Shown here: positions 5,262 to 49,784 of the stretch, one piece after another | How positions within the stretch are numbered: the first letter of the stretch is position 1 | How the letters are laid out: every line of letters begins with the position of its first letter | Assembly (NCBI RefSeq): GCF_009931435.1 | Contig: NZ_CP043414.1 | DNA length: 64,000 bases | Strand: one strand, 5' to 3' | From: Escherichia coli | Lineage (GTDB): Bacteria; Pseudomonadota; Gammaproteobacteria; Enterobacterales; Enterobacteriaceae | Notes under the pieces: model-generated | What the model was told of the DNA's origin: nothing | Databases searched by the model: none | What the model saw: only the letters and a program-made list of their open reading frames with translations | Program-made: the position numbers and the translations under genes

Positions 5262-5273
5262 TAACAAGGCGCG

Positions 5274-23357: not shown

Positions 23358-23395
23358 TACTTATTATGATATTGTAAACAATATCATAATAAGTA
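23358..23395. repeat. Perfect 18-bp inverted repeat with 2-bp spacer (tacttattatgatattgt aa acaatatcataataagta)
   Basis: Read directly; one arm is homologous to the coding sequence (..NIIIMRKY..) of the paralog at about 21470-21492, so the palindrome looks like an inverted duplication that truncated the gene. Confidence 0.8.
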
Positions 23396-23582
23396 ATATT
23401 AGTGAGTTTCTCGTGTTCTACACCTATCGAATCTCAAAAGTTGAGGGTAAAACATTACATTCAGAATATATGATATTCCTACCATCGGAATCCATTTTTC
23501 CAAATCGACCTTCTGGTGTGCCTGGATATCCATTAAGAACATGTTTTTCCGAATGGTTAATTTATTTTCTCAGGAAGATGTT

Positions 23583-28550: not shown

Positions 28551-31353
<2,803 letters not shown>

Positions 31354-31357
<4 letters not shown>

Positions 31358-32298
31358 GCGTGCGCTCCTTCATGACGACGAATGCGCGGGTCCAGCGCGG
31401 CGTTGAGCAAATCGACAATCAAATTACAGACCACAAAAACCACCACCATCATCAGCGTAAAGCATTGGATCACCGGATAGTCACGGTTAAAAATCGCCGA
31501 CACCGCATAGCGCCCGACGCCCGGCCAGGCAAAGATGTTTTCGATAATCATCGTCCCGCCAATCAGTTCGCCAATGTGCATCCCCACGGCGGTGATCATC
31601 GGCAGCGAGGCATTGCGCAGGATATGGCGGCGTTCGGTCTGTTTGTCGTTCAGGCCGCGCAGTCGCGCCCAGGTCACATGACGCTGACCGGCGACGTCCA
31701 GCATGCTGGCGCGCAGCAGACGCGCGTTAATCGCCAGCGACATAAAGGCGATGGAAACCGCAGGCAAAATGATGTGCTGCCAGCCGCCGTAACCCATCGC
31801 GGGCAGCCATTGCAGATACACTGAAAATGCCATCACCAGTAAAAACGCCAACCAGAAGTTGGGCATTGAAACGCCAAGAAACGCGATAAAACGCACGGCG
31901 AAATCCGGCAGGCGGTCGCGATGGCGCGCCGCCCAGATGCCGAGCGGCACGGAAGTGAGCAGAATTAATACCAGCGCCGCGCCCGCCAGTTCCAGCGTGG
32001 CGGGCAGGAAGGTCAGCATATCGTCCAGCACCGGGCGTTGGCTGGCGAATGAGATACCAAAGTCAAGATGCAGCGCTTTCCACAACCAGGTTCCGTACTG
32101 CACGTACAACGGCTGATCCAGCCCCAGCATGGTGCGGGTAGAAGCCAGCATTTCCGGCGTCGGCGGTAGGTTAGACAGACGCAGATAATCGAGCGCCGGG
32201 TCGCCGGTGCCGAGGCGCAGCATCAGAAAAATGATCACCGAGGCGGCGAGCACCATCGGGATCAGCAGCAGAAAGCGGCGTAATACATAACGCAACAT
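31354..32298 (-). CDS. nikB: Nickel ABC transporter permease NikB
   Basis: 314-aa polytopic ORF. Confidence 0.92.
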
Positions 32299-33872
32299 TA
32301 AGGTTTCACCGGTTTAATCTGTTCGAACGGGATTTCGGTGGCGATCGGCGCGTAGGGGATGTTACCCAGTTCCGGTTTTGAAACCACCATCATTGAGATA
32401 TAGCTGATGGGCAGATAAACCGCCTCGTCATGCAGACGGGTCAGAATGTCGCGATACAGTGCCTGACGTTGGGTTTCGTCGTGTGTCGCCAGCACTTCGC
32501 CAATCTCTTTATCAATCAGTGGCTTGTCGGCTAAACCTTGCTGTGCCTGGAAGTCAGCGTGCGACGGTACGCGCATTGAACTCAGGAAGGCGTGTGGATC
32601 GTATGGCGCGCCCCAGGTACGGTGGAAAATCATGCCAAAACGACCGTCGCGCTGACGAGCATAGATACTGCTCTCTTCTTCGCCGATCAGCGTGACATCC
32701 GCGCCAATCTGGCGCATATCAGCCTGAATGATTTCGGCCATTGATTTGCTTAACGCATCGGTGCCGATGAACGACAGTTCAATGCGCAGCGGCTGACCAT
32801 TTTTCTCGCGGATGTCTTTGCCTGCGGGCAGCGTCCAGCCTGCTTGTTCCAGCAACGCTTTCGCTTTCTGCGGATCGTACTGGCGCGGTTTCAGGCCGAG
32901 ATTGGCATAGGGCACGGAAGGGGCAAACAGGGTGTCGGCGACCTGCTGGGTGCCATACAACGCGTTATCGATCAGCGATTTTTTGTTTACCGCGTAATTG
33001 AGCGCTTCACGTACGGCCAGCTCGTTGGTGGGGGCTTTGGCAGTATTGAGCGCCAGCATCACGGTTTCGATCGGCTGTGACAGTTGGGTGTGGTAAGCCG
33101 GGTTCTGGCTAAAGCGGGCGAAGGTATCGAGCGGTAATAGCCCTTCATTACCGTATAGTAGATCGATATCGCCGGTTTCAAACGCTACTGCGCGGGTAGT
33201 CGGGTCTGGGATGACGTTAAAAGTGATCTTCTTAATCGCCGGCTTTTCGCCCCAGTAGTTTTCGTTACGGACGAAGACATCGTACTGATTCAGTTTCGAT
33301 TCCTGCAAAACCCACGGCCCGGTGCCAATCGGCGCTTTAATCCCATTCATGGTTTCATGGTTTTTAAACTGCGAAGGGGCGATAAAGCGGAAAGGACGGG
33401 GCAGGGCCAGTTCTTGCAGGAAAGGGTAGTAGGCGCTTTTCAGGGTGATTTGCAGCTCGGTTTTACTGAGAGCTTTGACATCAACAATCTGGTTTGCCAG
33501 CTCCAGCCAGGCGTGACGTTGACGGTTGTCGAGCACAGCGCGGAAGTTTTCTGCCGCGGCCTCTGCATCAAACGGTTCACCGTTAGAGAATTTCACATCA
33601 TCACGCAGGGTGAAGGTCCAGGTTTTGCCATCTTCTGAATGGGTCCAGCTTTTTGCCAGCCACGGGATCACCGAACCGTCTGCCTGATATTTCACCAGTG
33701 GTTCATAAACCATGCTCTGGGCGAACATCTGGTTGGGTGTGTAAAGGTGCGGGTTTAGTGGCCCGACATTCACCGGCCAGGCGGTGGTGATTTCATCTGG
33801 TGCAGCGGCATGGACGATAAAAGACGCACAAGCCAGCAGCGCAAATAGAGTGCGGCGTAGTGTGGAGAGCAT
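32298..33872 (-). CDS. nikA: Periplasmic nickel-binding protein NikA
   Basis: 524-aa ORF with signal peptide [25 protein letters not shown]. Confidence 0.94.
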
Positions 33873-33909
33873 TGTAACCCCAATGGATTAAAATAGATGG
33901 CGGAAATAA

Positions 33910-33937
33910 GTATGACGATTTTAAGTATTCGTCATAC
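33910..33937 (-). promoter_or_regulatory. NikR operator (GTATGA-N16-TCATAC) in the nikA promoter
   Basis: Exact match to the dyad gtatga cgattttaagtattcg tcatac, 38 nt upstream of the nikA start codon. Confidence 0.85.
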
Positions 33938-33982
33938 TGATAACCTGTTCTGGATCAATAGATGGGCAGTCGGATGGGCTGA

Positions 33983-34570
33983 TCAGTTAACTGAATCGAT
34001 CCATTGCACACTGTCGGCGGTGAGCGTAAAGGGAGTAGGGGTGCAGATCGCCAGACTTAAATTTTCAAGCTGACAATGGCTGACTGACAGCGAGGACTGA
34101 TAGGTGCTGTCTACGCTGACGATTTGCCAGGCGCTGCCGCCACGTTGTTTAACGATGGCTTCTTTGCGTGTCCAGATGCGCCAGAACATTTCCAGTTGCT
34201 GATCTGGATGCACGGCGTCCATCTCGGCATGTTCTCCGAGGCTGAACACCGCGTTCGCCAGCCAGCGCCAGTTGGCACGCGGGCGAATCACTTCGATATC
34301 GCAGCCGACTTCGCCCTCATCGCTCAACAGTAGGGCAATATCGTCACCGCTATGGCTTAAGTTGAACCATAGCGGCGTTTCCGATGCGAATGCGGGTTTG
34401 CCTTGTTCGCCGTAGATGATCTCAGGTAGCGGGGAAAGCGTGTGTGAAAGCAATGCACGCCCCGCCAGCCAGCGTTCGCGCCGTGGACCTTGCGGTGCTT
34501 TATCGCGTAAAGCCGGTGGCAGTGGAGCTGCGCTTAAGGTCGAAACTTTCCCCAGAACTATCCGATACAT
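33983..34570 (-). CDS. acpT: 4'-phosphopantetheinyl transferase AcpT
   Basis: 195-aa ORF MYRIVLGKVSTLSAAPLPPALRDKAPQGPRRERWLAGRALLSHTLSP... Confidence 0.88.
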   Translation of the reverse strand: MYRIVLGKVSTLSAAPLPPALRDKAPQGPRRERWLAGRALLSHTLSPLPEIIYGEQGKPAFASETPLWFNLSHSGDDIALLLSDEGEVGCDIEVIRPRANWRWLANAVFSLGEHAEMDAVHPDQQLEMFWRIWTRKEAIVKQRGGSAWQIVSVDSTYQSSLSVSHCQLENLSLAICTPTPFTLTADSVQWIDSVN

Positions 34571-34624
34571 ATCAGGGCCAACGTTTAATGGAAAATGAAA
34601 GTGCGTATCGTATCACTTGTCGCC

Positions 34625-35674
34625 TCATCCCGGTAACCGACTTTTCGGTCTGCCCGGCCCCAGTAAGATCGCCAGTTTGCTGCCGCCTTTGGTGGTTTCC
34701 ATCCAGATTTTACACACGCTAGTTAATGGCACCGAAAGCAACATACCTACCGGGCCGAGCAGCCATCCCCAAATCAATAATGAAAGAAATACCACCATGG
34801 TGGACATCCCCAGGCGATGGCCCATCATTCGCGGTTCTAAAATATTGCCGATGACCATATGGACAACTAAAAACAATGCGCCGACCAGAATACATTCGTA
34901 AACGCCATTAAACAGCAGCACCTGAATCATTGGCGGTACGGCGGAAATTACCGCGCCGATATTGGGCACGTAGTTGAGCAAAAACGCCAGTACTGCCCAC
35001 ATCAGCGCAAACTGTACGCCCATAAGTTCCAGCCCCAGCCAGACGATAATGCCTGTCCATAAACTTAGCAGTGTCTTCAATGCAAGATAGTGCGAAACAC
35101 CTTTTAAGGCGCGGTGTAGTCCGGCGATGTGAATCTGTGGATTATTCAACGCAAAACGCATTTTGTAAGGGACGTGGCGCACTTCAAACAGCATGAAAAC
35201 TACGGTCATCACCAGCAAAAGCACGCTCGCCATTGCCCCGGAAAGCCCGGTCATTAGCGCCGTGGTGAAGGTAACCACTTTTTCCGAGTCCATCCGCTGC
35301 AGCATTCGCTCCGGCGACATATGCAAATTAAGAAAAGGCAACATCTCCTGCAATTTAAAAAGTTTGCGCGTCAGCTCCTTATTAAACTTCGGCAGCATAG
35401 AGATGAATTCGTTAAACGAAGCTGCCAGTACACCGACCAGCGCGGTTAGTGCGATCAGCATCACCACCACCACAATCGTAATTGCAACGGGGCGTTGTAC
35501 TCCGCGACGAATAAACCAGGTGACGAGCGGGTTGAGGACGATGGCAAAAAACAGCGCCAGTAACAGTTGCACAATGATATCTGCCGCTGCGTGAATTCCC
35601 GCGAGGATCACTACCAGCGAGGCCAGCTTGAGCAGAATGTGCATGCCCGTTTTATCGGGTTGAGGGGTTTCCAT
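34625..35674 (-). CDS. yhhT: AI-2E/PerM-family membrane transporter
   Basis: ORF track 34625..35755; ATG at 35674 gives METPQPDKTGMHILLKLASLVVILAG..., 349 aa. Confidence 0.85.
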   Translation of the reverse strand: METPQPDKTGMHILLKLASLVVILAGIHAAADIIVQLLLALFFAIVLNPLVTWFIRRGVQRPVAITIVVVVMLIALTALVGVLAASFNEFISMLPKFNKELTRKLFKLQEMLPFLNLHMSPERMLQRMDSEKVVTFTTALMTGLSGAMASVLLLVMTVVFMLFEVRHVPYKMRFALNNPQIHIAGLHRALKGVSHYLALKTLLSLWTGIIVWLGLELMGVQFALMWAVLAFLLNYVPNIGAVISAVPPMIQVLLFNGVYECILVGALFLVVHMVIGNILEPRMMGHRLGMSTMVVFLSLLIWGWLLGPVGMLLSVPLTSVCKIWMETTKGGSKLAILLGPGRPKSRLPG

Positions 35675-35805
35675 TGGGGCTTCCTTGTGACTTTTTGTAT
35701 TAAGTGTAGCGGGAGTCACGCCAGCAATATTCTGATTCTTCCTGCTGATTTTCACGTCAGCACGTGGTAAAAATGAAACACTGTTGTAAAAATGTGGTGA
35801 TCCTC

Positions 35806-37023
35806 ATGCCCGAACCCGTAGCCGAACCCGCGCTAAACGGATTGCGCCTGAATTTGCGCATTGTCTCCATTGTCATGTTTAACTTCGCCAGCTACCTCAC
35901 CATCGGGTTGCCGCTCGCTGTATTACCGGGCTATGTCCATGATGTGATGGGCTTTAGCGCTTTCTGGGCAGGATTGGTTATCAGCCTGCAATATTTCGCC
36001 ACCTTGCTGAGCCGCCCTCATGCCGGACGTTACGCCGATTTGCTGGGACCCAAAAAGATTGTCGTCTTCGGTTTATGCGGCTGCTTTTTGAGCGGTTTGG
36101 GGTATCTGACGGCAGGGTTAACCGCCAGTCTGCCCGTCATCAGCCTGTTATTACTGTGCCTGGGGCGCGTGATCCTTGGGATTGGGCAAAGTTTTGCCGG
36201 AACGGGATCGACCCTATGGGGCGTTGGCGTGGTTGGTTCGCTGCATATCGGGCGGGTGATTTCGTGGAACGGCATTGTCACTTACGGGGCGATGGCAATG
36301 GGCGCGCCGTTAGGTGTGGTGTTTTATCACTGGGGCGGCTTGCAGGCGTTAGCGTTAATCATTATGGGTGTGGCGCTGGTGGCCATTTTGTTAGCGATCC
36401 CGCGTCCGACGGTAAAAGCCAGCAAAGGCAAACCGCTGCCGTTTCGCGCGGTGCTTGGGCGTGTCTGGTTATACGGCATGGCGCTGGCGTTGGCTTCTGC
36501 CGGATTTGGCGTTATCGCCACCTTTATCACATTGTTTTATGACGCTAAAGGCTGGGACGGTGCGGCTTTTGCGCTGACGCTGTTTAGCTGTGCGTTTGTC
36601 GGTACGCGTTTGTTATTTCCTAACGGCATTAACCGTATCGGCGGCTTAAATGTGGCGATGCTCTGCTTTAGCGTTGAGATTATTGGCCTGCTGTTGGTCG
36701 GCGTGGCGACCATGCCGTGGATGGCGAAAATTGGCGTCTTACTGGCAGGGGCGGGGTTTTCGCTGGTGTTCCCGGCGCTTGGTGTGGTGGCGGTCAAAGC
36801 AGTGCCGCAGCAGAATCAGGGGGCGGCGCTGGCAACTTACACCGTATTTATGGATTTATCGCTTGGCGTGACCGGACCACTGGCTGGGCTGGTGATGAGT
36901 TGGGCGGGCGTCCCGGTGATTTATCTGGCGGCGGCGGGACTGGTCGCAATCGCGTTATTACTGACGTGGCGATTAAAAAAACGGCCTCCGGTGGAAGTAC
37001 CTGAGGCCATCTCATCATCTTAA
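35806..37023 (+). CDS. yhhS: MFS-family transporter YhhS
   Basis: ORF track 35764..37023; ATG at 35806 gives MPEPVAEPALNGLRLNLRIVSIVMFNF..., 405 aa. Confidence 0.87.
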   Translation: MPEPVAEPALNGLRLNLRIVSIVMFNFASYLTIGLPLAVLPGYVHDVMGFSAFWAGLVISLQYFATLLSRPHAGRYADLLGPKKIVVFGLCGCFLSGLGYLTAGLTASLPVISLLLLCLGRVILGIGQSFAGTGSTLWGVGVVGSLHIGRVISWNGIVTYGAMAMGAPLGVVFYHWGGLQALALIIMGVALVAILLAIPRPTVKASKGKPLPFRAVLGRVWLYGMALALASAGFGVIATFITLFYDAKGWDGAAFALTLFSCAFVGTRLLFPNGINRIGGLNVAMLCFSVEIIGLLLVGVATMPWMAKIGVLLAGAGFSLVFPALGVVAVKAVPQQNQGAALATYTVFMDLSLGVTGPLAGLVMSWAGVPVIYLAAAGLVAIALLLTWRLKKRPPVEVPEAISSS

Positions 37024-37026
37024 AAC

Positions 37027-37584
37027 TTACTGAATAACCAGCGTATTAATGATGTTTTCTGCGGTGGTCTGTGCTTTTTGCTGATCGTCAGCTGGCAGCG
37101 TAATTTGCATGGTCAGCAGTTGATTACCCACGTTACCCAGAATAACGGAAGAGTACGCCGTCTGGCCTTTCGCGGAGATAATGCTGTCTAACTGCTGCAT
37201 TTTGTGACCTTTCAGCTCAATGGCTTTATTGGTTACCACTTGCAGCTGCGGATCGCGGCTACGTTGCTGATCTTCCAGGCGCTTCGCCAGCACCGCCAGA
37301 TCTTCTTTCGGATCATCGCCCATGATGACGATGACTGCTTTTTGCCCGGTGGCGTCGGACCAGACATGCATGTTATTAGCCTGCGTTCCCAGCTTACCGC
37401 TCTGGTCGGTCATATCCGCTGGCAGCGAGAAACTTAACTTGCCATCAAGCAGGTTGACGGGATTCCCGGTAGCGTTACTTTCCGCGACCGAACCCTGCGC
37501 CGTAGCGTTAGTGTTTTTATCATCACAGGCCGCAAGCCCCATAACCAGCAGGCCAATTCCGACATATTTAACCAGATTGCGCAT
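37027..37584 (-). CDS. dcrB: Periplasmic lipoprotein DcrB
   Basis: ORF track 37027..37638; ATG at 37584 gives [23 protein letters not shown] with a lipobox, 185 aa. Confidence 0.88.
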
Positions 37585-37656
37585 TGACTTCTTCCTTTCG
37601 ATAAACGGCCATAACGGCTCATTCATCCATCTTATCACAACTCTGATAACGAACCT

Positions 37657-38322
37657 TTAACTCGCCTGCAAAGCGTTGATTTCGGATTTATCTGCCAGTC
37701 TTTTCAACAGCATATTGAGTAATACGCCATACATTGGCAGGAAGAAAACGATACTGATTAACACTTTGAAACAGTAATCGACCAGCGCGATTTCCATCCA
37801 GTGTTCAGCCATAAAGGCATCTGGGCTGCGCCAGAAGGCAATGAAGAAGAAGGCCAGCGTGTCGCTGACGTTCCCAAACAGGGTGGAAGCCGTCGGTGCC
37901 AGCCACCAGCGACGACTCTGACGCAGGCGGTTAAAAACGTGCACGTCGAGGATTTGCCCCAGCGCGTAGGCCATGAAACTGGCGGTGGCGATACGGGCGA
38001 CAAACAGGTTGAAGTGGGCGAGCGCGCCGAACCCCTGCCATGAACCCATATAGAACAGCGACGAGATGACGTAGGAGATCAGCAATGCGGGGATCATCAC
38101 CGCAAAGATGATGCGACGAGCCAGCGGCGCGCCAAAAATACGCACAGTCAGGTCGGTAGCAAGGAAAATAAACGGAAAGCTAAACGCGCCCCAGGTGGTA
38201 TGGAAACCAAAAATGGATACGGGAAGCTGAACCAGATAGTTACTGGAGGTGATCACCAACAGATGAAATAACGATAACCAGAACAACGCCTTATAGCGTT
38301 GAGTTTGCGAGAAAACGTTCAT
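37657..38322 (-). CDS. yhhQ: Queuosine-precursor transporter (YhhQ/COG1738)
   Basis: 221-aa polytopic ORF MNVFSQTQRYKALFWLSLFHLLVITSSNYLVQLPV... Confidence 0.88.
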   Translation of the reverse strand: MNVFSQTQRYKALFWLSLFHLLVITSSNYLVQLPVSIFGFHTTWGAFSFPFIFLATDLTVRIFGAPLARRIIFAVMIPALLISYVISSLFYMGSWQGFGALAHFNLFVARIATASFMAYALGQILDVHVFNRLRQSRRWWLAPTASTLFGNVSDTLAFFFIAFWRSPDAFMAEHWMEIALVDYCFKVLISIVFFLPMYGVLLNMLLKRLADKSEINALQAS

Positions 38323-38542
38323 ATTGTACCTTTTTGATTAACCATTGGGGTGAGGGAACCCAATACGTACGACACGTCTGTTACCTTAACATAATAACGT
38401 GCTGACCCTTTTTTCGAGCCGCCGCATGATACTGCTTTACGTTGACAATGCAATGGTTAATTTTCACGCAATCGTTAACCTGGTTTGCTTACGGACTCAC
38501 AGGGCGTAAACTAGCGCCGTTTTTTTATGTGATGAGAAGAAA

Positions 38543-38788
38543 ATGACCGATCTCTTTTCCAGCCCTGACCACACACTCGACGCACTTGGCCTGCGCTGCC
38601 CGGAACCAGTAATGATGGTGCGCAAAACTGTGCGCAATATGCAGCCAGGTGAAACGTTGCTGATTATTGCTGACGATCCGGCGACGACACGCGATATTCC
38701 TGGGTTTTGTACCTTTATGGAACACGAACTGGTTGCGAAAGAGACCGATGGACTGCCTTATCGTTATTTGATTCGCAAATCGGGGTAA
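38543..38788 (+). CDS. tusA: Sulfur-carrier protein TusA
   Basis: 81-aa [36 protein letters not shown]... with the CPxP motif. Confidence 0.95.
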
Positions 38789-38842
38789 GGTGGATCAGGC
38801 TAGCGGACCGATCGCGCTCAATTTTGCGGCTTGAAACCGGTT

Positions 38843-39080
38843 TGTAGGACGGATAAGGCGTTCAAGCTGCATCTGGCGATACGGTGCACAATGCCTGATG
38901 CGACGCTGTCGCGTCTTATCATGCCTACGAGTTCTATGCTCTGTGTAGGACGGATAAGGCGTTCACGCCGCATCCGGCGGTTGTGTGTGGATGCCTGATG
39001 CGACGCTGTCGCGTCTTATCATGCCTACGAGTTCAATGCCCTGTGTAGGCCAGATAAGGCGTTTACGCCGCATCCGGCAC
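38843..39080. repeat. BIME cluster (at least four REP units) containing a tandemly duplicated unit of about 100 bp
   Basis: Unit atgcctgatgcgacgctgtcgcgtcttatcatgcctacgagttc.atgc.ctgtgtagg.c.gataaggcgtt.acgccgcatccggc occurs twice (about 38891-38978 and 38991-39079). Confidence 0.8.
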
Positions 39081-39102
39081 GCAAACGTAATGGAATGCAC
39101 AA

Positions 39103-39411
39103 ATGGATTATTTAATTCCAGTTTGTCTGGCATTGCTGGGATTGCTCGCGATCTTCACCCCCAATTGGCTGATCCCTGTTTTTATCGTCGTGGGGGGATG
39201 GCTGGGGGTACTTGCCTGGGGTTGGCTCTGGCTAATGATTTTTTTACCTTTACTTAACGGTGTCGGGCTTGCTTATGCCCTGTGGTTGATGTTCAAAAGG
39301 CCATCCATAGCATCCCGCCTGGTTGCTGCATGCTGTGTTATCTCCGTCATTCTGATGTTAGCGCTTTATTATGCTTTCCTGACTATGCCGCCGTTCCCGC
39401 CTCAGCACTAA
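39103..39411 (+). CDS. Candidate small hydrophobic membrane protein (102 aa, Trp-rich, about three TM segments); not recognised
   Basis: ORF MDYLIPVCLALLGLLAIFTPNWLIPVFIVVGGWLGVLAWGWLWLMIFLPLL... between the BIME cluster and the zntA 3' end; weak RBS. Confidence 0.4.
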   Translation: MDYLIPVCLALLGLLAIFTPNWLIPVFIVVGGWLGVLAWGWLWLMIFLPLLNGVGLAYALWLMFKRPSIASRLVAACCVISVILMLALYYAFLTMPPFPPQH

Positions 39412-39443
39412 GCCTGATAGCCAGAGGCTATCAGGCAACACTT

Positions 39444-41642
39444 TTACTTCCTGCGCAACAATCTTAACGCATTCGCTGTTACCAGCACCGTCGCACCCGT
39501 ATCTGCCAGCACCGCCAGCCATAGTCCGGTCATCCCTAACAGCGTTGTGACGAGGAAGATCCCTTTCAGCCCCAGCGCAATGGTGATGTTCTGGCGGATG
39601 TTGGCGTGAGTGGCGCGTGCCAGTTCAATCATCTGCGCCAGGCCGCGCAGGTGGTTATGGGTTAATGCTGCGTCGGCGGTTTCCAGCGCCACATCTGTGC
39701 CACTGCCCATTGCAATTCCTATGGCGGCAGCTTTCATGGCGGGCGCGTCGTTAATACCGTCACCGACCATCGCCAGAGGCGCATGTTGATTCAGCTCGGT
39801 CACCGCTTTGACTTTATCTTCTGGTAATAGGCCCGCTTTAAATTCCAGCCCCAGTTCACCGGCGATTGCCGCCGCTGCGCGTGGATTATCGCCAGTGAGG
39901 ATCACCCCTTTGACACCCAGGGCGCTCAGTTCGCTGATGGCAGTTGCGGCGTCGGCGCGCAGGGTATCCTGCAATGCAATTACGCCAAGCACGTCATCGT
40001 TACGCACCACCAGTACTACCGTTTGCCCGGCGCTTTCCAGTTCGTTAATTAAACCAGCAAATGCAACAGCCGGATGTTTTCCGGCAGCGCATATCAACAC
40101 GCGCTCGCCGTTAATCAGTGCTTCAATACCAGACCCGACCAGCGCCCGCTGTGATTCGGCGGCGGGAATGGCGAGTTCAGCAACCTGTGCTTCGCGTACG
40201 ATGGCTTGCGCCAATGGATGCGTCGCGCCTTGCTCGACCGCCGCTGCCAGTGTCAGCAGTTCAGATTCACTAATACCCGTTGCCGGATGAATCGCGGTAA
40301 CGCGCGGTTTACCGACGGTCAGCGTACCGGTTTTATCAAACGCCACCTGGGTAACACGACCTAGTTGTTCCAGCGCCGCACCGCCTTTAATCAACGCCCC
40401 ACGACGCGCTGCGGCTGCCAGCCCGGAGGTGATCGCCGCAGGTGTTGAGATCACCAGCGCACACGGGCAGCCAATCAGCAGCAGCGTCAGCCCTTTATAA
40501 ATCCACTCCTGCCAGCTTGCGGCAAACAGCAGCGGCGGCACCAGCGTCACCAGCAGGGCGACGGCCATAATCGCTGGCGTGTAAATACGGCTGAAACGGT
40601 CGATAAACCGCTCAATCGGTGCGCGGCGCTCTTCAGCTTCTTCGATCAGTTTCAGAATCCGGTCAATGGCGCTGGCACCCGGTTCTGACAGCACTTCCAG
40701 CGTTACCAGACGGTCTACGCTGGTGGCGCCTGCAGGAACTTTATCACCCGTCGCGCGTTCCACCGGAATGGATTCGCCGGTCAGGGCGCTTTCATCAAAA
40801 CTGGCAAAGGGCGAGAGCAGTTTACCGTCGGCAGGTAAACGCCCACCTGCCGCAACTTCGATAACATCGCCCGGACGCAGGCTGTTAATTGCTACCTCTT
40901 CACGCTTGCCATTACGCAGGCGCGTGGCGGTTTCCGGTTTCAGCGCCATTAACGCGCTGACCCCTTGACGCGCGCGGCTGGCGGCCCAGCCTTCCAGTCG
41001 TTCACCAATCAAAAACAGCAGCAACACCATCGCAGCTTCAGCCGTTGCGCCAATAAACAGCGCACCAATAGCGGCTACGCTCATTAAGGTTTCAATAGCG
41101 AAGTAGCTGCCGGATTTGATCAGCCGTAATGCCTGACGAGCAATCGGGTACAGCCCAACCAGCGTGGTCGCGATAAACGCCAGTTGACCGAACGGATGAT
41201 TAAACTGCTCCAGACCCCAGCTGATTGCCATCAACACGATTAGCGTAATCAGCGGCAGATTCTCTTTCAGGCGTGATTCTTGTTGTTCGTCGGCGGACTG
41301 TTCATCGCGCAGGGAATAGCCCGCTTTTTGCACCGCAGATTCAACTTGTGCACGGATGTCATTGTCGGCATCAACCACCAGTTTTTCGGTGGCGAACAGC
41401 ACCTGCACCTGATTCACGCCTGCAAGCTGGCGCACGGCATTTTCTACCTTGCGCGCGCAGGCGGCGCAGTCCATGCCGCTGACTTTCCAGCTATAGCGGG
41501 TGCCGGAGACGTTTTCAGAGAGCGTTGGCGTGCTGGAACATGCGCCGTCGCAGCAACAGTCGTTGACGTTCTGTACCGTGGTTAGCGGTTTGAACGCAGA
41601 AAATTGAGGGGCTTTCTTGCCGTGATTGTCAGGAGTCGACAT
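39444..41642 (-). CDS. zntA: Zn/Cd/Pb-exporting P1B-type ATPase ZntA
   Basis: 732-aa ORF; N-terminal metal-binding GMDCAACARKVE, CPC transmembrane motif, DKTGTLT phosphorylation site. Confidence 0.96.
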   Translation of the reverse strand: MSTPDNHGKKAPQFSAFKPLTTVQNVNDCCCDGACSSTPTLSENVSGTRYSWKVSGMDCAACARKVENAVRQLAGVNQVQVLFATEKLVVDADNDIRAQVESAVQKAGYSLRDEQSADEQQESRLKENLPLITLIVLMAISWGLEQFNHPFGQLAFIATTLVGLYPIARQALRLIKSGSYFAIETLMSVAAIGALFIGATAEAAMVLLLFLIGERLEGWAASRARQGVSALMALKPETATRLRNGKREEVAINSLRPGDVIEVAAGGRLPADGKLLSPFASFDESALTGESIPVERATGDKVPAGATSVDRLVTLEVLSEPGASAIDRILKLIEEAEERRAPIERFIDRFSRIYTPAIMAVALLVTLVPPLLFAASWQEWIYKGLTLLLIGCPCALVISTPAAITSGLAAAARRGALIKGGAALEQLGRVTQVAFDKTGTLTVGKPRVTAIHPATGISESELLTLAAAVEQGATHPLAQAIVREAQVAELAIPAAESQRALVGSGIEALINGERVLICAAGKHPAVAFAGLINELESAGQTVVLVVRNDDVLGVIALQDTLRADAATAISELSALGVKGVILTGDNPRAAAAIAGELGLEFKAGLLPEDKVKAVTELNQHAPLAMVGDGINDAPAMKAAAIGIAMGSGTDVALETADAALTHNHLRGLAQMIELARATHANIRQNITIALGLKGIFLVTTLLGMTGLWLAVLADTGATVLVTANALRLLRRK

Positions 41643-41684
41643 GGCATCCTCCGGTTAAGTTTTTTCTCATTAACCGAAGGATAC

Positions 41685-41706
41685 ACTCTGGAGTCGACTC
41701 CAGAGT
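41685..41706 (-). promoter_or_regulatory. ZntR (MerR-family) operator dyad within the zntA promoter
   Basis: Perfect palindrome actctggagtcgactccagagt between a cttgac -35-like hexamer and the zntA start, matching the known PzntA architecture from memory. Confidence 0.85.
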
Positions 41707-41715
41707 CAAGTTTTA

Positions 41716-42342
41716 TCAGAGATACAGCGAGCGGACGATGAGGAAATGTCCGGCAAAATAACAAGCGGCGGCAATCGCGTTATCCGCACGGAAGCGTCGG
41801 CGATAGTGGCTACCCAGCCAGACAAAGTTACTGATAAACAGCAACGAAGCGCCGACAAATGCAGAAAGTGCCGGAGCGGTTGGACGGAAGAACCACAGTT
41901 CACCTGCCAGCCATACCATCACCAGCGTCATGCCGATAAACGTGCAGATAGGCCAACGATACTCTTCCAGACGCGTCCAGATAATCGCCAGTAACAGCGC
42001 GCCCAGAACCAGCAATACCAGTGGCAGAGGCCAGAAGAAAGAGAGCGTCATCTGACTGGCGAAATAGATGGTGTAAAGCAGGTGCGAGAGGAAAAACGCG
42101 CCGATGGCGTACATCAGACGTTGACGTGGCAACAGGGTTAGCGCATCGCCCAGCAGTGAGGCGCACAGCCCCGCCAGCACCAGATAGCTAATGGCGTCGA
42201 ACATCGGCGCTTGCCATGCCAGTAACAGCAGGAGAAGAAGGGTTAACGGTTTAAACACCCAGCGTTGCCAGGTTGGCCCACGATACGATGCATCCACAGA
42301 TAGCCATGCGGAAAGACAGACTGCGATAAACGACCAAAGCAT
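41716..42342 (-). CDS. yhhN: YhhN-family inner-membrane protein
   Basis: 208-aa polytopic [41 protein letters not shown]... Confidence 0.85.
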
Positions 42343-42482
42343 CTTAGTTCCTTGAATTCGTTATTTTTTCGTAAGCGGAATGCCTACGGTCTTGCTTCCA
42401 GTTTAGTGGCGAGGGTGGACGGATGACAACACCATAACTGGCAGGGTATGCTTATTTCCGCATTTTCCGATGAGGGATAAAG

Positions 42483-42842
42483 ATGAGCAAACCACCTCTT
42501 TTCTTTATTGTTATCATTGGCTTAATTATCGTCGCCGCATCGTTTCGTTTTATGCAACAGCGACGGGAAAAAGCTGATAATGATATAGCGCCACTCCAGC
42601 AAAAGTTGGTGGTGGTGAGCAATAAGCGGGAAAAACCGATTAACGATCGCCGTTCGCGCCAGCAGGAAGTAACTCCGGCAGGCACCAGCATGCGCTATGA
42701 GGCGAGCTTCAAACCGCAAAGCGGAGGAATGGAACAGACGTTTCGCCTCGACGCCCAGCAGTACCATGCCCTGACAGTGGGCGATAAAGGTACGCTGAGC
42801 TATAAAGGAACGCGCTTTGTCAGCTTTGTCAGCAAACAATAA
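42483..42842 (+). CDS. yhhM: DUF2500-family protein YhhM
   Basis: 119-aa ORF with N-terminal TM segment MSKPPLFFIVIIGLIIVAASFRFMQQRREKADND... Confidence 0.82.
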   Translation: MSKPPLFFIVIIGLIIVAASFRFMQQRREKADNDIAPLQQKLVVVSNKREKPINDRRSRQQEVTPAGTSMRYEASFKPQSGGMEQTFRLDAQQYHALTVGDKGTLSYKGTRFVSFVSKQ

Positions 42843-42844
42843 GG

Positions 42845-43114
42845 TTATTTTTTAACGTTAAATTTCTTCTGCCAGACCAGCAGTTCAAACACGCCGAAAA
42901 GGAAAATGCGCACCTTTTCGGCGGTGGTCATCTGCGGGCCATCTTTCGGTAAAGTGGATTTCAACAGCGCCAGCTGCATACCATGCATCAGCACGGTAAA
43001 AATCAGCGCCACGTTAACGAAAATATTCAGCGGACGCGGGAAGGGATGCACCAGGTTGAGGATTAAAAATCCCCAAACACAGAGCATTAACACACGACCA
43101 ATATTAATCAGCAT
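42845..43114 (-). CDS. yhhL: DUF1145-family small membrane protein YhhL
   Basis: ORF track 42845..43237; ATG at 43114 gives MLINIGRVLMLCVWGFLILNLVHPF..., 89 aa; sits 5 nt after the rsmD stop. Confidence 0.75.
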   Translation of the reverse strand: MLINIGRVLMLCVWGFLILNLVHPFPRPLNIFVNVALIFTVLMHGMQLALLKSTLPKDGPQMTTAEKVRIFLFGVFELLVWQKKFNVKK

Positions 43115-43700
43115 CACTTTCTCCTTGTGCTTCGCGTTGATACAGGCGGTAAGCCACCTGACCTGCCACTTTTTCCCGATGTAATGACCAGTTCGCCGGA
43201 ACGGTGGGGAGCCCGTTTTCGACTTCGCTTTCGACATAAATCAGGGCTTCGTCAGCCAGCCAGCCGTTATCTTCCAGTAAATTTATCGTCTCTTCTAACA
43301 AGCCACGGCGGAACGGTGGATCGACAAAAACGATATTATGCGGTGTGCCTTTTTGCGCCAGGAATGACATCGCGTTGCTGTTCACCACGCGTGCATTACC
43401 TGCTTTTAGTGTCGCCAGATTCTTAATTAACTGTTGAGAAACCGCGCGATCCATCTCAATCAACGTGGCCCCCGCAGCGTAGCGCGATAACGCTTCCAGC
43501 CCCAGCGCGCCGCTCCCGGCGAAGCAATCCAGACATTGGGCGTCAACAATGACCGGAGCCAGCCAGTTAAACAACGTTTCGCGTACGCGGTCGGTGGTGG
43601 GGCGCAGACCTGGGCTATCAGGAACCGGGAGTTTACGGCCTCGCCACTGCCCGCCAATAATGCGGATTTGGCCGCTGCCGGAATGATTCGGTTTTTTCAT
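43104..43700 (-). CDS. rsmD: 16S rRNA m2G966 methyltransferase RsmD
   Basis: 198-aa ORF MKKPNHSGSGQIRIIGGQWRGRKLPVPDSPGLRPTTDRVRETLFNWL... with SAM-MTase motif DCFAGSGALGLEALSR. Confidence 0.93.
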   Translation of the reverse strand: MKKPNHSGSGQIRIIGGQWRGRKLPVPDSPGLRPTTDRVRETLFNWLAPVIVDAQCLDCFAGSGALGLEALSRYAAGATLIEMDRAVSQQLIKNLATLKAGNARVVNSNAMSFLAQKGTPHNIVFVDPPFRRGLLEETINLLEDNGWLADEALIYVESEVENGLPTVPANWSLHREKVAGQVAYRLYQREAQGESDAD

Positions 43701-43849
43701 GATAAATTGCTCAATCCGCCAGATAACACATACTTGCAGGCGGTGATGTGAATTAAGTTAAGTGATAGACTATTTCATCATTTTTTTAGCTGCTATGTAC
43801 ATAGCGTTAACGCTGTGCCATGAAGCAACAGCGAGGAGTGTAGTCGCAA

Positions 43850-45388
43850 ATGGCGAAAGAAAAAAAACGTGGCTTTTTTTCCTGGCTGGGCTTTGGTCAA
43901 AAAGAGCAGACCCCGGAAAAAGAGACAGAAGTCCAGAACGAACAACCGGTTGTAGAAGAAATCGTTCCGGCGCAAGAGCCTGCGAAGGCTTCTGAACAAG
44001 CCGTTGAAGAGCAGCCGCAGGCGCATACTGAAGCCGAGGCGGAAACTTTTGCTGCCGACGTTGTGGAAGTTACTGAACAGGTTGCTGAAAGTGAAAAAGC
44101 GCAGCCTGAAGCTGTTGCTGAACCGGAAGTTATTACTGAGCCGGAAACGATAGTTGAAGAAACGCCAGCGTCAGTCATTGAACCTGAAGTTACGCCAGAG
44201 CCTGTGGCTATCGAGCGTGAAGAGCTGCCGTTGCCGGAAGACGTCAAAGCCGAAGAGGTTTCGCCAGAAGAGTGGCAGGCCGAAGCGGAAACCGTAGAGA
44301 TTGTCGAAGCGGCGGAAGAAGAAGCGGCTAAAGACGAAATCACCGACGAAGAGCTGGAAGCACAGGCGCTGGCTGCCGAAGCGGCAGAAGAGGCGGTGAT
44401 GGTGGTTCCTCCGGCAGAAGAAGAGCAGCCGGTGGAAGAAATCGCTCAGGAGCAGGAAAAACCGACCAAAGAAGGTTTCTTCGCGCGCCTGAAACGCAGC
44501 CTGTTAAAAACCAAAGAAAACCTCGGTTCCGGATTTATCAGCCTGTTCCGCGGTAAAAAAATCGACGATGATCTGTTTGAAGAATTGGAAGAGCAATTGC
44601 TCATCGCCGATGTGGGCGTGGAAACCACGCGTAAAATTATCACCAATCTAACAGAAGGTGCGACCCGCAAGCAGCTTCGTGATGCCGAGGCGCTCTATGG
44701 CCTATTGAAAGAAGAGATGGGTGAGATTCTGGCGAAAGTCGATGAACCGCTGAACGTTGAAGGTAAAACGCCGTTCGTGATCCTGATGGTGGGCGTCAAC
44801 GGTGTGGGTAAAACCACGACGATCGGTAAGCTGGCGCGTCAGTTTGAGCAGCAGGGTAAATCAGTGATGCTGGCGGCGGGCGATACTTTCCGTGCAGCAG
44901 CGGTTGAACAGCTTCAGGTCTGGGGTCAGCGTAATAATATTCCGGTGATTGCCCAGCATACCGGTGCGGATTCCGCTTCTGTTATCTTCGACGCCATTCA
45001 GGCCGCTAAAGCGCGTAACATCGACGTTCTGATTGCCGATACCGCCGGACGCCTGCAGAACAAATCGCACTTGATGGAAGAGTTGAAGAAAATCGTCCGC
45101 GTGATGAAGAAACTCGACGTTGAAGCTCCGCATGAAGTTATGCTGACTATCGACGCCAGTACCGGGCAGAATGCAGTAAGCCAGGCCAAACTGTTCCACG
45201 AAGCCGTTGGCTTAACCGGCATCACGCTAACGAAACTGGACGGCACGGCGAAAGGCGGGGTAATTTTCTCGGTGGCTGACCAGTTTGGTATCCCTATCCG
45301 CTACATTGGTGTCGGCGAACGTATTGAGGATTTGCGTCCGTTTAAGGCGGACGACTTTATAGAGGCACTTTTTGCCCGAGAGGATTAA
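43850..45388 (+). CDS. ftsY: Signal-recognition-particle receptor FtsY (acidic A domain plus NG GTPase domain)
   Basis: 512-aa ORF MAKEKKRGFFSWLGFGQKEQTPEKE...; GTPase motifs GVNGVGKTTT and DTAGR; the E/P/V-rich A domain looks longer than the roughly 497 aa I recall for K-12. Confidence 0.95.
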   Translation: MAKEKKRGFFSWLGFGQKEQTPEKETEVQNEQPVVEEIVPAQEPAKASEQAVEEQPQAHTEAEAETFAADVVEVTEQVAESEKAQPEAVAEPEVITEPETIVEETPASVIEPEVTPEPVAIEREELPLPEDVKAEEVSPEEWQAEAETVEIVEAAEEEAAKDEITDEELEAQALAAEAAEEAVMVVPPAEEEQPVEEIAQEQEKPTKEGFFARLKRSLLKTKENLGSGFISLFRGKKIDDDLFEELEEQLLIADVGVETTRKIITNLTEGATRKQLRDAEALYGLLKEEMGEILAKVDEPLNVEGKTPFVILMVGVNGVGKTTTIGKLARQFEQQGKSVMLAAGDTFRAAAVEQLQVWGQRNNIPVIAQHTGADSASVIFDAIQAAKARNIDVLIADTAGRLQNKSHLMEELKKIVRVMKKLDVEAPHEVMLTIDASTGQNAVSQAKLFHEAVGLTGITLTKLDGTAKGGVIFSVADQFGIPIRYIGVGERIEDLRPFKADDFIEALFARED

Positions 45389-45390
45389 CA

Positions 45391-46059
45391 ATGATTCGCT
45401 TTGAACATGTCAGCAAGGCTTATCTCGGTGGGAGACAGGCGCTGCAGGGCGTTACGTTCCATATGCAGCCGGGTGAGATGGCGTTTCTGACCGGTCATTC
45501 CGGCGCAGGGAAAAGTACCCTCCTGAAGCTGATCTGTGGGATTGAGCGGCCCAGCGCCGGGAAAATCTGGTTTAGCGGCCATGACATCACGCGTCTGAAA
45601 AACCGTGAAGTTCCGTTTCTGCGCCGCCAGATTGGCATGATTTTCCAGGATCACCATCTACTGATGGACCGTACTGTCTACGATAACGTGGCGATCCCGC
45701 TGATTATCGCCGGTGCCAGCGGTGACGATATTCGTCGTCGTGTATCGGCGGCGCTGGATAAAGTCGGGCTACTGGACAAAGCGAAGAACTTCCCTATTCA
45801 GCTTTCCGGCGGTGAACAACAGCGTGTTGGCATTGCCCGCGCGGTGGTGAACAAGCCCGCGGTACTGCTGGCGGATGAACCGACCGGTAACCTTGACGAC
45901 GCGTTGTCAGAAGGAATTCTACGTCTGTTTGAAGAATTTAACCGCGTTGGGGTAACCGTATTGATGGCAACGCACGACATCAACCTGATTTCGCGGCGTT
46001 CCTATCGCATGCTCACCCTGAGCGATGGTCACTTGCATGGAGGCGTGGGCCATGAATAA
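45391..46059 (+). CDS. ftsE: Cell-division ABC ATPase FtsE
   Basis: 222-aa ORF with Walker [10 protein letters not shown] and signature LSGGEQQR. Confidence 0.96.
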
Positions 46060-47110
46060 GCGCGATGCAATCAATCATATCCGGCAGTTTGGCGGGCGTC
46101 TGGATCGCTTCCGTAAATCGGTCGGCGGCTCTGGCGACGGCGGTCGTAACGCGCCAAAACGGGCGAAATCCTCGCCAAAACCGGTAAATCGCAAAACCAA
46201 CGTTTTCAACGAACAGGTGCGCTATGCCTTCCACGGCGCATTGCAGGATCTGAAAAGTAAACCGTTCGCCACGTTTTTAACGGTGATGGTTATCGCCATC
46301 TCCCTGACGCTGCCCAGCGTCTGTTATATGGTGTACAAAAACGTTAACCAGGCGGCGACGCAGTATTATCCGTCACCGCAAATCACTGTTTATCTGCAAA
46401 AAACGCTGGATGATGACGCCGCTGCGGGTGTGGTGGCACAGTTGCAGGCCGAGCAAGGCGTAGAGAAAGTAAACTATCTTTCTCGTGAAGACGCACTGGG
46501 CGAGTTCCGTAACTGGTCTGGTTTTGGTGGTGCGCTGGATATGCTGGAGGAAAACCCGCTTCCGGCAGTGGCGGTGGTAATCCCGAAACTCGATTTTCAG
46601 GGGACCGAGTCACTGAATACCTTGCGCGATCGTATCACCCAGATCAACGGCATTGACGAAGTGCGAATGGATGACAGCTGGTTTGCCCGTCTGGCGGCGT
46701 TGACCGGGCTGGTCGGGCGCGTTTCGGCAATGATCGGCGTATTGATGGTGGCGGCAGTGTTCCTCGTCATCGGTAACAGTGTGCGTCTGAGCATCTTTGC
46801 TCGCCGTGACTCCATTAACGTACAGAAACTGATTGGTGCGACAGATGGTTTCATCCTGCGCCCGTTCCTGTACGGTGGCGCATTGCTGGGATTTTCTGGC
46901 GCATTGTTGTCATTAATTTTGTCAGAGATTCTGGTACTGCGTTTGTCTTCGGCGGTTGCGGAAGTGGCACAGGTTTTCGGAACGAGGTTTGATATCAATG
47001 GCTTATCTTTCGATGAATGTCTGCTTTTGCTGCTGGTGTGTTCGATGATTGGCTGGGTGGCAGCCTGGCTTGCCACGGTACAACATTTACGCCACTTTAC
47101 GCCTGAATAA
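46052..47110 (+). CDS. ftsX: Cell-division ABC permease-like protein FtsX
   Basis: ORF track 46025..47110; ATG at 46052 gives [23 protein letters not shown]..., 352 aa; overlaps the ftsE 3' end. Confidence 0.93.
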
Positions 47111-47234
47111 TAAAAGCGTGTTATACTCTTTCCCTGCAATGGGTTCCGTAGCAGGGAAAGAGACCCCGTTGTCTCTTCCCGGTATTTCATCTCTATGTCA
47201 CATTTTGTGCGTAATTTATTCACAGCGTTGCATT

Positions 47235-47261
47235 GAACTTGTGGATAAAATCACGGTCTGA
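47235..47261 (+). promoter_or_regulatory. rpoH P3 promoter (sigma-E dependent)
   Basis: GAACTT-N16-TCTGA (ttgaacttgtggataaaatcacggtctgataaaa) matches the sigma-E consensus and the known rpoH P3. Confidence 0.8.
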
Positions 47262-47354
47262 TAAAACAGTGAATGATAACCTCGTTGCTCTTAAGCTCTG
47301 GCACAGTTGTTGCTACCACTGAAGCGCCAGAAGATATCGATTGAGAGGATTTGG

Positions 47355-48209
47355 ATGACTGACAAAATGCAAAGTTTAGCTTTAGCCCCAGTTGGCAACC
47401 TGGATTCCTACATCCGGGCAGCTAACGCGTGGCCGATGTTGTCGGCTGACGAGGAGCGGGCGCTGGCTGAAAAGCTGCATTACCATGGCGATCTGGAAGC
47501 AGCAAAAACGCTGATCCTGTCTCACCTGCGGTTTGTTGTTCATATTGCTCGTAATTATGCGGGCTATGGCCTGCCACAGGCGGATTTGATTCAGGAAGGT
47601 AACATCGGCCTGATGAAAGCAGTGCGCCGTTTTAACCCGGAAGTGGGTGTGCGCCTGGTCTCCTTCGCCGTTCACTGGATCAAAGCAGAGATCCACGAAT
47701 ACGTTCTGCGCAACTGGCGTATCGTCAAAGTTGCGACCACCAAAGCGCAGCGCAAACTGTTCTTCAACCTGCGTAAAACCAAGCAGCGTCTGGGCTGGTT
47801 TAATCAGGATGAAGTCGAAATGGTGGCCCGTGAACTGGGCGTAACCAGCAAAGACGTACGTGAGATGGAATCGCGTATGGCGGCACAGGACATGACCTTT
47901 GACCTGTCTTCCGATGACGATTCCGACAGCCAGCCGATGGCTCCGGTGCTTTATCTGCAGGATAAATCGTCCAACTTTGCCGACGGCATTGAAGATGATA
48001 ACTGGGAAGAGCAGGCGGCAAACCGTCTGACCGACGCGATGCAGGGCCTGGATGAGCGTAGCCAGGACATTATCCGCGCACGCTGGTTGGACGAAGACAA
48101 CAAGTCCACGTTGCAGGAACTGGCTGACCGTTACGGTGTTTCCGCTGAGCGTGTGCGCCAGCTGGAAAAGAACGCGATGAAAAAACTTCGCGCTGCTATT
48201 GAAGCGTAA
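47355..48209 (+). CDS. rpoH: RNA polymerase sigma-32 (heat-shock sigma factor)
   Basis: ORF track 47307..48209; ATG at 47355 gives [41 protein letters not shown]..., 284 aa. Confidence 0.97.
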
Positions 48210-48480: not shown

Positions 48481-49584
48481 ATGAATATAAAGGGTAAAGC
48501 GTTACTGGCAGGATGTATCGCGCTGGCATTCAGCAATATGGCTCTGGCAGAAGATATTAAAGTCGCGGTTGTGGGCGCAATGTCCGGTCCGGTGGCCCAG
48601 TACGGCGACCAGGAGTTTACTGGCGCAGAGCAGGCAGTTGCGGATATTAACGCTAAAGGCGGTATCAAAGGCAACAAACTGCAAATCGTAAAATATGACG
48701 ATGCCTGTGACCCGAAACAGGCGGTCGCGGTGGCGAACAAAGTCGTTAACGACGGCATTAAATATGTCATTGGCCACCTCTGTTCTTCATCAACGCAGCC
48801 AGCGTCTGACATCTACGAAGACGAAGGCATTTTAATGATCACCCCAGCAGCAACCGCACCAGAGCTGACCGCCCGTGGCTATCAGCTGATCCTGCGCACC
48901 ACCGGCCTGGATTCCGACCAGGGGCCGACGGCGGCGAAATATATTCTTGAGAAAGTGAAACCGCAGCGTATTGCTATCGTTCACGACAAACAGCAGTACG
49001 GCGAAGGTCTGGCGCGTGCGGTGCAGGACGGCCTGAAGAAAGGCAATGCTAACGTGGTGTTCTTTGACGGCATCACCGCCGGGGAAAAAGATTTCTCAAC
49101 GCTGGTGGCGCGTTTGAAGAAAGAGAATATCGACTTCGTTTACTACGGTGGTTACCACCCGGAAATGGGGCAGATCCTGCGTCAGGCACGCGCGGCAGGG
49201 CTGAAAACTCAGTTTATGGGGCCGGAAGGCGTGGCTAACGTCTCGCTGTCTAACATTGCGGGCGAGTCAGCTGAAGGGTTGCTGGTAACCAAGCCGAAGA
49301 ACTACGATCAGGTTCCGGCGAACAAACCAATTGTTGACGCGATCAAAGCGAAAAAACAGGACCCAAGCGGCGCGTTCGTCTGGACCACCTACGCCGCGCT
49401 GCAATCTTTGCAGGCGGGCCTGAATCAGTCTGACGATCCGGCTGAAATCGCCAAATACCTGAAAGCGAACTCCGTGGATACCGTGATGGGGCCGCTGACC
49501 TGGGATGAGAAAGGTGATCTGAAAGGCTTTGAGTTCGGCGTATTTGACTGGCACGCCAACGGCACGGCGACCGATGCGAAGTAA
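48481..49584 (+). CDS. livJ: Periplasmic Leu/Ile/Val-binding protein LivJ
   Basis: ORF track 48466..49584; ATG at 48481 gives [43 protein letters not shown]..., 367 aa. Confidence 0.95.
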
Positions 49585-49644
49585 TCATTAATCGGCAACT
49601 TTGGGTTGCCGCCAAATTGCTAATATCGAGTACGCATGCTTCAT

Positions 49645-49744
<100 letters not shown>

Positions 49745-49784
49745 ATTTCTCGTTGGTCATCACTTTTGAAATCAAACTTGACGA

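Follow-up and report, generated by a model that had tools for sequence, protein, structure and literature searches.

The window (the whole stretch of DNA analysed, 64 kb) includes an open reading frame of 512 codons plus stop that is, judged by its sequence, an intact ftsY gene, specifying the SRP receptor (Table 1). The predicted protein scores 385.9 bits against TIGR00064 (the NCBIfam FtsY equivalog, cut-off 260.7), the NCBIfam models for Ffh and SRP54 each fall under their own cut-offs against it, and the solved E. coli FtsY chains 5gad_l and 2yhs_A align to it over their full length (E ~4e-294). Pfam finds the SRP54_N helical bundle (PF02881) and the SRP54-type GTPase (PF00448), both well over their gathering scores, and the GTPase motifs are intact (GVNGVGKT, aa 315–322; DTFR, 345–348; DTAGR, 397–401; TKLD, 461–464; GVGE, 487–490). 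The gene stands first in the ftsYEX operon, in the context rsmD, ftsY-ftsE-ftsX, rpoH, and both the order and the spacing match those of annotated K-12 and other E. coli genomes. The preliminary description had named the gene ftsY, and the family models, the match to solved structures and the operon context all bear this out. A Ser-rich antisense reading frame of 148 aa (nt 43897–44343, minus strand) was attributed to the sense strand being rich in GAA and GCN codons, and was set aside.

Table 1. Features of the ftsY locus, with positions in the window and the basis of each assignment.
Feature	Position (nt)	Strand	Basis
rsmD, divergent upstream neighbour	43104–43700	-	ORF; comparison with annotated genomes
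ftsY coding sequence	43850–45388	+	ORF list of the window; Pfam; TIGR00064; PDB FtsY match; annotated in 5425 E. coli genomes
A domain, acidic low-complexity N-terminal region, aa 1–208	43850–44473	+	Composition; K-12 alignment
N-terminal lipid-binding helix region, aa 1–14	43850–43891	+	Identity to K-12
12-nt segment (VAEP, aa 89–92), missing in K-12-type ftsY	44112–44123	+	Alignments
30-nt segment (TPASVIEPEV, aa 105–114), missing in K-12-type ftsY	44162–44191	+	Alignments
15-nt imperfect tandem repeat, 2.2 copies (EAAEE/EAAKD)	44306–44338	+	Tandem Repeats Finder; sole tandem DNA repeat in ftsY
Codon Q172	44363–44365	+	Missing only in the 497-aa K-12-type allele; kept in the common 498-aa allele
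A/N-boundary helix, FFARLKRSL (K-12 195–203)	44477–44503	+	Sequence identity to K-12
NG domain: SRP54_N helical bundle (aa 225–290) and SRP54-type GTPase (aa 308–508)	44522–45373	+	Pfam; motifs in the translation
ftsE, next in the ftsYEX operon	45391–46059	+	ORF; order and spacing as in annotated K-12 and 2020CK-00188
ftsX	46052–47110	+	Coordinates from the annotated 1059-nt gene; mechanical ORF start at 46025

The FtsY protein of K-12 (497 aa; 2YHS and 5GAD chain l, with the NG part in 1FTS, 2QY9 and others) has the same domain order (A, N, G) and the same operon as the window protein, and its N-terminal helix, A/N-boundary helix and GTPase motifs (GxxGxGKT, DTFR, DTAGR, TKLD, GxGE) are identical. 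Residues 1–20 are the same in both proteins, as are residues 205–225 of the window protein and 190–210 of K-12. The window protein had been thought to be some 15 residues longer than the familiar form; against K-12 and BW25113 the excess is exactly 15 aa (512 versus 497), all of it in the A domain, and DNA and protein alignments resolve it into three in-frame indels of +12 nt, +30 nt and +3 nt. Besides all 15 indel residues, the A domain carries 11 substitutions relative to K-12, compared with two (T272S and T307A) in the 304 aa of the NG domain. The common 498-aa E. coli allele (e.g., P0019) is like that of K-12 in being without the 4-aa and 10-aa segments, but has kept Q172. Mismatches to K-12 number 3–14 per 150 nt and are alike in ftsY and the neighbouring genes, so that ftsY was rejected as a local hot spot of divergence; only the indels are special.

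The A domain is strongly acidic (pI 4.05, net charge -50, Glu 28%), and the residues E, A, V, P, Q and T make up 83% of aa 21–200. The motif EPE[VT] occurs three times (aa 91, 97 and 111), where shuffled sequences would give 0.25 (P ~0.0015); the segments that K-12 is without account for two of these occurrences. These values agree with the earlier account of an acidic, E/P/V-rich A domain with EPEV/EPET-like units. The EPE[VT] units repeat at the peptide level only: Tandem Repeats Finder (minimum score 30) detected no tandem array in the DNA at the indel sites, and the one tandem repeat that it found in the gene (Table 1) has equal length in K-12, the alignment being gap-free there. Shorter direct repeats are present. 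CTGAA at nt 44106–44110 and 44118–44122 brackets the 12-nt segment, the heptamer ACGCCAG opens the 30-nt segment (nt 44162–44168) and recurs immediately after it (nt 44192–44198), a spacing of exactly 30 nt, and imperfect direct repeats at spacings of 18, 30 and 60 nt occur within nt 44101–44205. The copies spaced 30 nt apart match at 76% over 21 nt.

An exact-sequence look-up returned the identical 512-aa protein on 381 public contigs, where it is named FtsY [Escherichia coli], and several complete genomes encode it. The gene is a familiar one, and this allele of it was already on record. Of 5426 complete E. coli genomes in RefSeq, a single one gave no match to ftsY; 18 match at 99% or more, each with a gene of 1539 nt, and a 131-nt probe (nt 44090–44220) spanning both larger indels detected the long segment in 49 of the 5426 (0.9%). 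The gene lengths in a systematic, evenly spaced sample of 30 E. coli genomes were 1497 nt (16 genomes), 1494 nt (11), and 1539, 1488 and 1377 nt (one each). The long form is rare in sequenced E. coli, yet well established. Among the 49 genomes, those nearest to the window include 2013C-4282, and the long form also occurs inside E. coli sensu stricto, in strain SMS-3-5 (a phylogroup F reference; PMC10100065) and about 30 similar genomes.

The comparison was extended to the genus with two sets of sequences. Clustered with the window protein at 90% identity are the 512-aa FtsY proteins of E. fergusonii, E. marmotae, E. ruysiae and Escherichia sp. E10V10. Further Escherichia came from a scan in which each species was represented by a single genome and the conserved N-terminus was sought with a degenerate pattern; it gave at least 120 loci. 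The loci listed include no complete-gene representative of E. coli, E. fergusonii, E. marmotae, E. ruysiae or Salmonella enterica, and the S. enterica arizonae locus breaks off after 27 codons; the four Escherichia species were compared via the cluster members, and Salmonella lies outside the comparison. The FtsY proteins of E. marmotae, E. ruysiae, E. whittamii and E10V10 are 512 aa long, are 87–93% identical to the window protein, and have both segments at its positions. Strain SCPM-O-B-8794 likewise has an FtsY of 512 aa. In Escherichia sp. E1V33 the protein is 509 aa, with both segments kept and a separate 3-aa gap elsewhere, and in E. albertii it is 504 aa, with the 4-aa segment kept and a gap of its own (8 aa). 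Overall, the alignment shows the 4-aa segment in every other Escherichia species examined and the 10-aa segment, at the window's positions, in all of them except E. albertii; among the aligned Escherichia, both segments are missing only in the K-12-type and 498-aa-type E. coli proteins. The FtsY of clade I and E. fergusonii type (P0001) is identical to the window protein in sequence, length, indel state and gene context. A reference FtsY of the same length and sequence, which the preliminary description had named as counting against its reading, is found when clade I or E. fergusonii is taken as the reference, and not with K-12 (497 aa).

The whole window is syntenic with K-12 and ~95–96% identical to it. 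Over nt 1–14000 and again over nt 30000–43800, one small set of strains (2020CK-00188, 2013C-4282, RMDEC465, R32_14_1F, N96 and others) matches best in RefSeq, at 98.2–99.2% identity, with most E. coli at 95–97%. The nearest public genomes differ from the window by 0.3–1.3% of their DNA over nt 43000–48000. According to PMC10100065, the complete genome of 2013C-4282 belongs to cryptic clade I, whose members share an average nucleotide identity (ANI) of >98.3% with one another and of >95.9% with E. coli sensu stricto. The window most likely comes from Escherichia cryptic clade I or from a strain very close to it, a placement made by identity over 64 kb of DNA, where the published criteria are genome-wide ANI values. 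As the window is clade-I-like, the long FtsY would be the normal allele of its lineage and not a peculiarity of the strain.

A side observation concerns E. fergusonii ATCC 35469, which is 98.2% identical to the window from nt 39447 to at least nt 55385 (a block of at least 16 kb, carrying zntA, yhhN, yhhM, yhhL, rsmD, ftsYEX, rpoH, livJ, panM and livKHMGF) and 84.3% identical over nt 34629–38779 (yhhT to tusA). Its own FtsY (CAQ90914.1) is 98% identical to that of the window over the A domain, and the exact window protein is found in three genomes whose match to ATCC 35469 extends through all 21.5 kb of the locus. In a neighbour-joining tree of nt 43000–48000, E. fergusonii falls inside the clade I cluster, at distances of up to 1.3%, with K-12 4.06% away. 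The identity of the window to K-12 is 95.8% inside the block and 95.2–96.2% outside it. For the other species, identity to K-12 within the block is 95.5% (E. fergusonii), 93–94% (E. whittamii) and 90.6% (E. albertii), and in the left flank it is 84.4% for E. fergusonii and 92.3% for E. albertii. The discontinuity at ~39.4 kb is seen in the comparison with E. fergusonii and is absent from that between the window and E. coli. The right edge of the block was sought by means of the E. fergusonii LivG protein, which is identical in ordinary E. coli, and the look-up gave common E. coli contigs. The step in identity points to an exchange between species, and E. fergusonii is the more likely recipient, with a clade-I-like donor, because it is E. 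fergusonii and not the window that shifts its distance to K-12. Gene flow between E. fergusonii and clade I is no new idea, since PopCOGenT puts E. fergusonii genomes in species-group 4, that of Walk clade I (PMC9830988).

The polarity of the length difference was judged on Escherichia species alone, because the A domains of Citrobacter and Klebsiella, considered as outgroups, align ambiguously at both indel sites. Across rsmD-rpoH, E. whittamii, SCPM-O-B-8794 and E1V33 differ from the window by ~6–7% of their DNA and, with E. albertii included, by 6–9%, a divergence that makes these four independent witnesses. E. fergusonii does not qualify as one, since its alleles fall within the clade I cluster. 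Given that the other Escherichia species share the long layout at the same positions, the short E. coli form would be the derived one, and by parsimony the 512-aa layout is most likely ancestral in Escherichia, with the 497/498-aa form of E. coli a contracted derivative. This polarity is a parsimony reading of a small number of species at a locus that clearly recombines. The SMS-3-5-like long alleles within E. coli sensu stricto mean that the short form either never became fully fixed or was replaced there when a long allele was brought back in. The 12-nt and 30-nt deletions would have arisen on the way to most E. coli sensu stricto; each falls between short direct repeats, as replication slippage or a deletion mediated by microhomology would leave it. 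Slippage is the likely mechanism, because CTGAA (copies 12 nt apart) and ACGCCAG (30 nt apart) flank the deletions. A further loss of 3 nt, removing Q172, would be specific to the 497-aa alleles such as that of K-12. The proposal that repeat expansion or contraction had produced a strain-level polymorphism is thereby retained in part: an in-frame length polymorphism of the A domain, linked to short repeats, does exist, but it is at the level of lineages, its polarity is probably reversed and it bears no signature of tandem duplication.

What the additional residues may do can be considered against published work on the receptor. The A domain is flexible, is non-essential in E. coli and is missing from many FtsY homologues, and it binds lipids and SecY, with residues 143–176 of the K-12 protein cross-linking to SecY (PMC4602035). 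The N-terminal lipid-binding helix is non-essential (PMC3128533, PMC4602035), and K-12 residues 195–203, R198 and K200 are essential (PMC3128533). In the window protein, the stretch equivalent to K-12 143–176 differs by D162E, A171T and the indel of Q172 only, this residue lying within it. All three indels are outside both lipid-binding helices, and those of 12 and 30 nt are also upstream of the SecY-contact peptide. Among the matches listed, ~80 complete Enterobacterales FtsY genes have A domains ranging from ~154 to 328 aa, and the rest of the protein is constant at 304 aa. Citrobacter, Klebsiella, Pantoea, Kluyvera and other Enterobacterales have the conserved MAKEKKRGFFSWLGFG start followed by an acidic low-complexity middle and, as in the window, the conserved EQEKPTKEGFFARLKRSL boundary and the 304-aa NG part; their middle regions differ in length and cannot be aligned in detail with that of the window. 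Because the length of the A domain varies about two-fold across the Enterobacterales, the linker would evidently be under weak length constraint. The window protein is expected to act as in K-12: its N-terminal and A/N-boundary helices would attach to anionic lipid, contacts with SecY would involve the G domain as well as the acidic, disordered A domain, and the NG domain would pair with Ffh and hydrolyse GTP. The near-identity of the NG domain to that of K-12 suggests a GTP-dependent complex with Ffh/4.5S RNA and targeting activity, and the extra 14 residues would merely lengthen the disordered acidic linker. Since the A domain is non-essential, the larger indels are outside the contact sites and the NG domain is near-identical, functional change is not expected, and the 512-aa FtsY probably behaves like that of K-12.

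We are confident, on the strength of these comparisons, that the window carries an ordinary, intact ftsY of clade I or of a close strain, that 512 aa is the length typical of the genus and probably ancestral, that the short form came about through deletions, and that the protein should work as in K-12. A recent, strain-specific expansion of EPEV/EPET-coding units in the A domain might be read from the clustering of the three EPE[VT] units in aa 86–118, two of them in the extra segments, and from the imperfect direct repeats that accompany them in the DNA. It is nonetheless most improbable, as five or more other Escherichia species, at 6–9% divergence, have the segments in matching positions, the identical protein is so widely deposited, the indel sites are free of any tandem array, and the low match of the 30-nt-spaced copies means that there was no recent duplication. 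An assembly or sequencing artefact could be suspected in low-complexity, GAA-rich coding sequence of this kind, which can be mis-assembled, but we give it practically no credence, given that hundreds of independent assemblies, several complete genomes among them, contain the identical protein, and that the indels preserve the reading frame and recur in other species.

The long allele could also be native neither to the strain nor to its lineage, the zntA-livF block of at least 16 kb having been imported from E. fergusonii by homologous recombination. The abrupt step in identity at the left of the block, the mingling of E. fergusonii sequences with clade I in the tree, the exact window protein in the three ATCC 35469-like genomes and the PopCOGenT grouping would all suit such an import. 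It is nevertheless unlikely: the distance between the window and K-12 is the same in and out of the block, as expected for native clade I DNA, while E. fergusonii is close to K-12 within the block and more distant in the flank than even E. albertii, and the break at the left edge does not appear when the window is compared with E. coli. A native clade I allele remains the preferred reading. A longer acidic tether might alter how the SRP receptor engages the membrane and SecYEG in clade I and other Escherichia, given that the A domain binds both lipids and SecY, and the near-fixation of the short form across the phylogroups of E. coli sensu stricto could reflect selection. We regard this as very unlikely, seeing that the A domain is reported to be non-essential, that neither of the larger indels touches a lipid-binding helix or the peptide mapped as contacting SecY, and that the two-fold range of lengths in the Enterobacterales suggests weak constraint. 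Only marginally better odds attach to a broader speculation, in which the short A domain became near-fixed in E. coli sensu stricto because it tunes the tethering of the SRP receptor to the membrane and SecYEG, and the long form (clade I, SMS-3-5-like phylogroup F strains, E. fergusonii) is the sign of a zntA-ftsYEX-rpoH-liv block of clade I type that is mobile between species. An ordinary clade-I-type ftsY of the length usual in the genus is the account we keep.

FtsY is the product of a textbook essential gene and this exact protein has been deposited many times, so little is at stake for the gene itself. K-12 FtsY would, however, carry a derived, shortened A domain, and its residue numbers, on which the SRP literature relies throughout, differ by as many as 15 from those of clade I and most other Escherichia. 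The pair of indels, 42 nt in all, offers a simple marker by which clade I and the other Escherichia can be told from the bulk of E. coli sensu stricto, though an imperfect one, as some phylogroup-F-like strains keep the long form. Finally, the near-identity of clade I and E. fergusonii over at least 16 kb may serve as a concrete example of exchange between species that includes essential genes.

Across two parts of the window (1–14000 and 30000–43800), identity is 98.2–99.2% to a small set of RefSeq genomes labelled 'E. coli', among them 2020CK-00188 and 2013C-4282, and 95–97% to the bulk of E. coli. The window appears, from these nucleotide comparisons, to originate from Escherichia cryptic clade I. 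It also carries RyhB and ES036/CssrF, both of which are expected features of E. coli (see the table).

The block from zntA to livF, extending over at least 16 kb, is about 98% identical to the corresponding locus of E. fergusonii ATCC 35469 (CU928158.2), whereas the adjoining yhhT–tusA region is only about 84% identical to that species. In a tree of window nt 43,000–48,000 the E. fergusonii alleles are enclosed within the clade I cluster. Together, the high identity of the block relative to its neighbour and the nested position of these alleles suggest interspecies recombination, with transfer from a clade-I-like donor to E. fergusonii as the more likely direction. Exchange between E. fergusonii and clade I is consistent with a published PopCOGenT grouping (PMC9830988).

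Elsewhere, several segments differ from E. coli K-12 or from related genomes. About 670 bp between tusA and zntA has no K-12 counterpart but is found in SMS-3-5, where it is annotated with a 102-aa hypothetical protein; the segment includes a direct repeat and a match to naRNA4. In the rhsB region, megablast aligned the flanks to the K-12 locus at 93–95% but left approximately 3 kb between them unmatched, and this stretch looks like the variable C-terminal tip of an Rhs protein together with its immunity region. In some related genomes, livJ and panM are separated by an inserted segment of about 0.9 kb (L005, nt 15,885–16,685; L133, nt 5043–5843), which encodes a TacA-like antitoxin and a GNAT acetyltransferase, a TacAT-type toxin‒antitoxin pair. 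The livJ–panM interval of the window (approximately nt 49,584–49,782) is without this insertion.

Features of the window and their coordinates
Feature	Position (nt)	Strand	Details
ES036/CssrF	6591–6631	-	Rfam match above gathering score, 42 bits
rhsB region, unmatched to K-12	~21650–24630		
yhhT–tusA region	34629–38779		adjoins the shared block
tusA–zntA segment	~38780–39448		
Direct repeat in tusA–zntA segment	38843–38978 and 38944–39078		~135 nt, 88% identity
naRNA4	38948–39025		REP-derived, Rfam match, within tusA–zntA segment
Block shared with E. fergusonii	39447 to at least 55385		zntA to livF, including ftsYEX and rpoH
Ser-rich ORF	43897–44343	-	148 aa, antisense to the ftsY A-domain coding region
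RyhB sRNA	63762–63826	+	Rfam match above gathering score, 83.1 bits

Rather than being a gene, the ORF lying antisense to ftsY most likely reflects the GAA/GCN richness of the sense strand. Among the matches listed for Enterobacterales (L011–L130, one genome per species), full-length FtsY proteins range from 458 to 612 aa. Counted from the GFFxRLK boundary onwards, the C-terminal remainder measures 304 aa in every one of these matches, and the length variation is confined to the A domain (approximately 154–328 aa). Within E. coli, further in-frame A-domain length variants occur as genes of 1488 nt and about 1377 nt (genome matches H4 and H30), and a member of the 90%-identity protein cluster of the window FtsY (P0014) is a 466-aa protein that lacks 32 A-domain residues, corresponding to aa 144–175 of the window protein. 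These shortened variants show this part of the protein to be tolerant of deletions.
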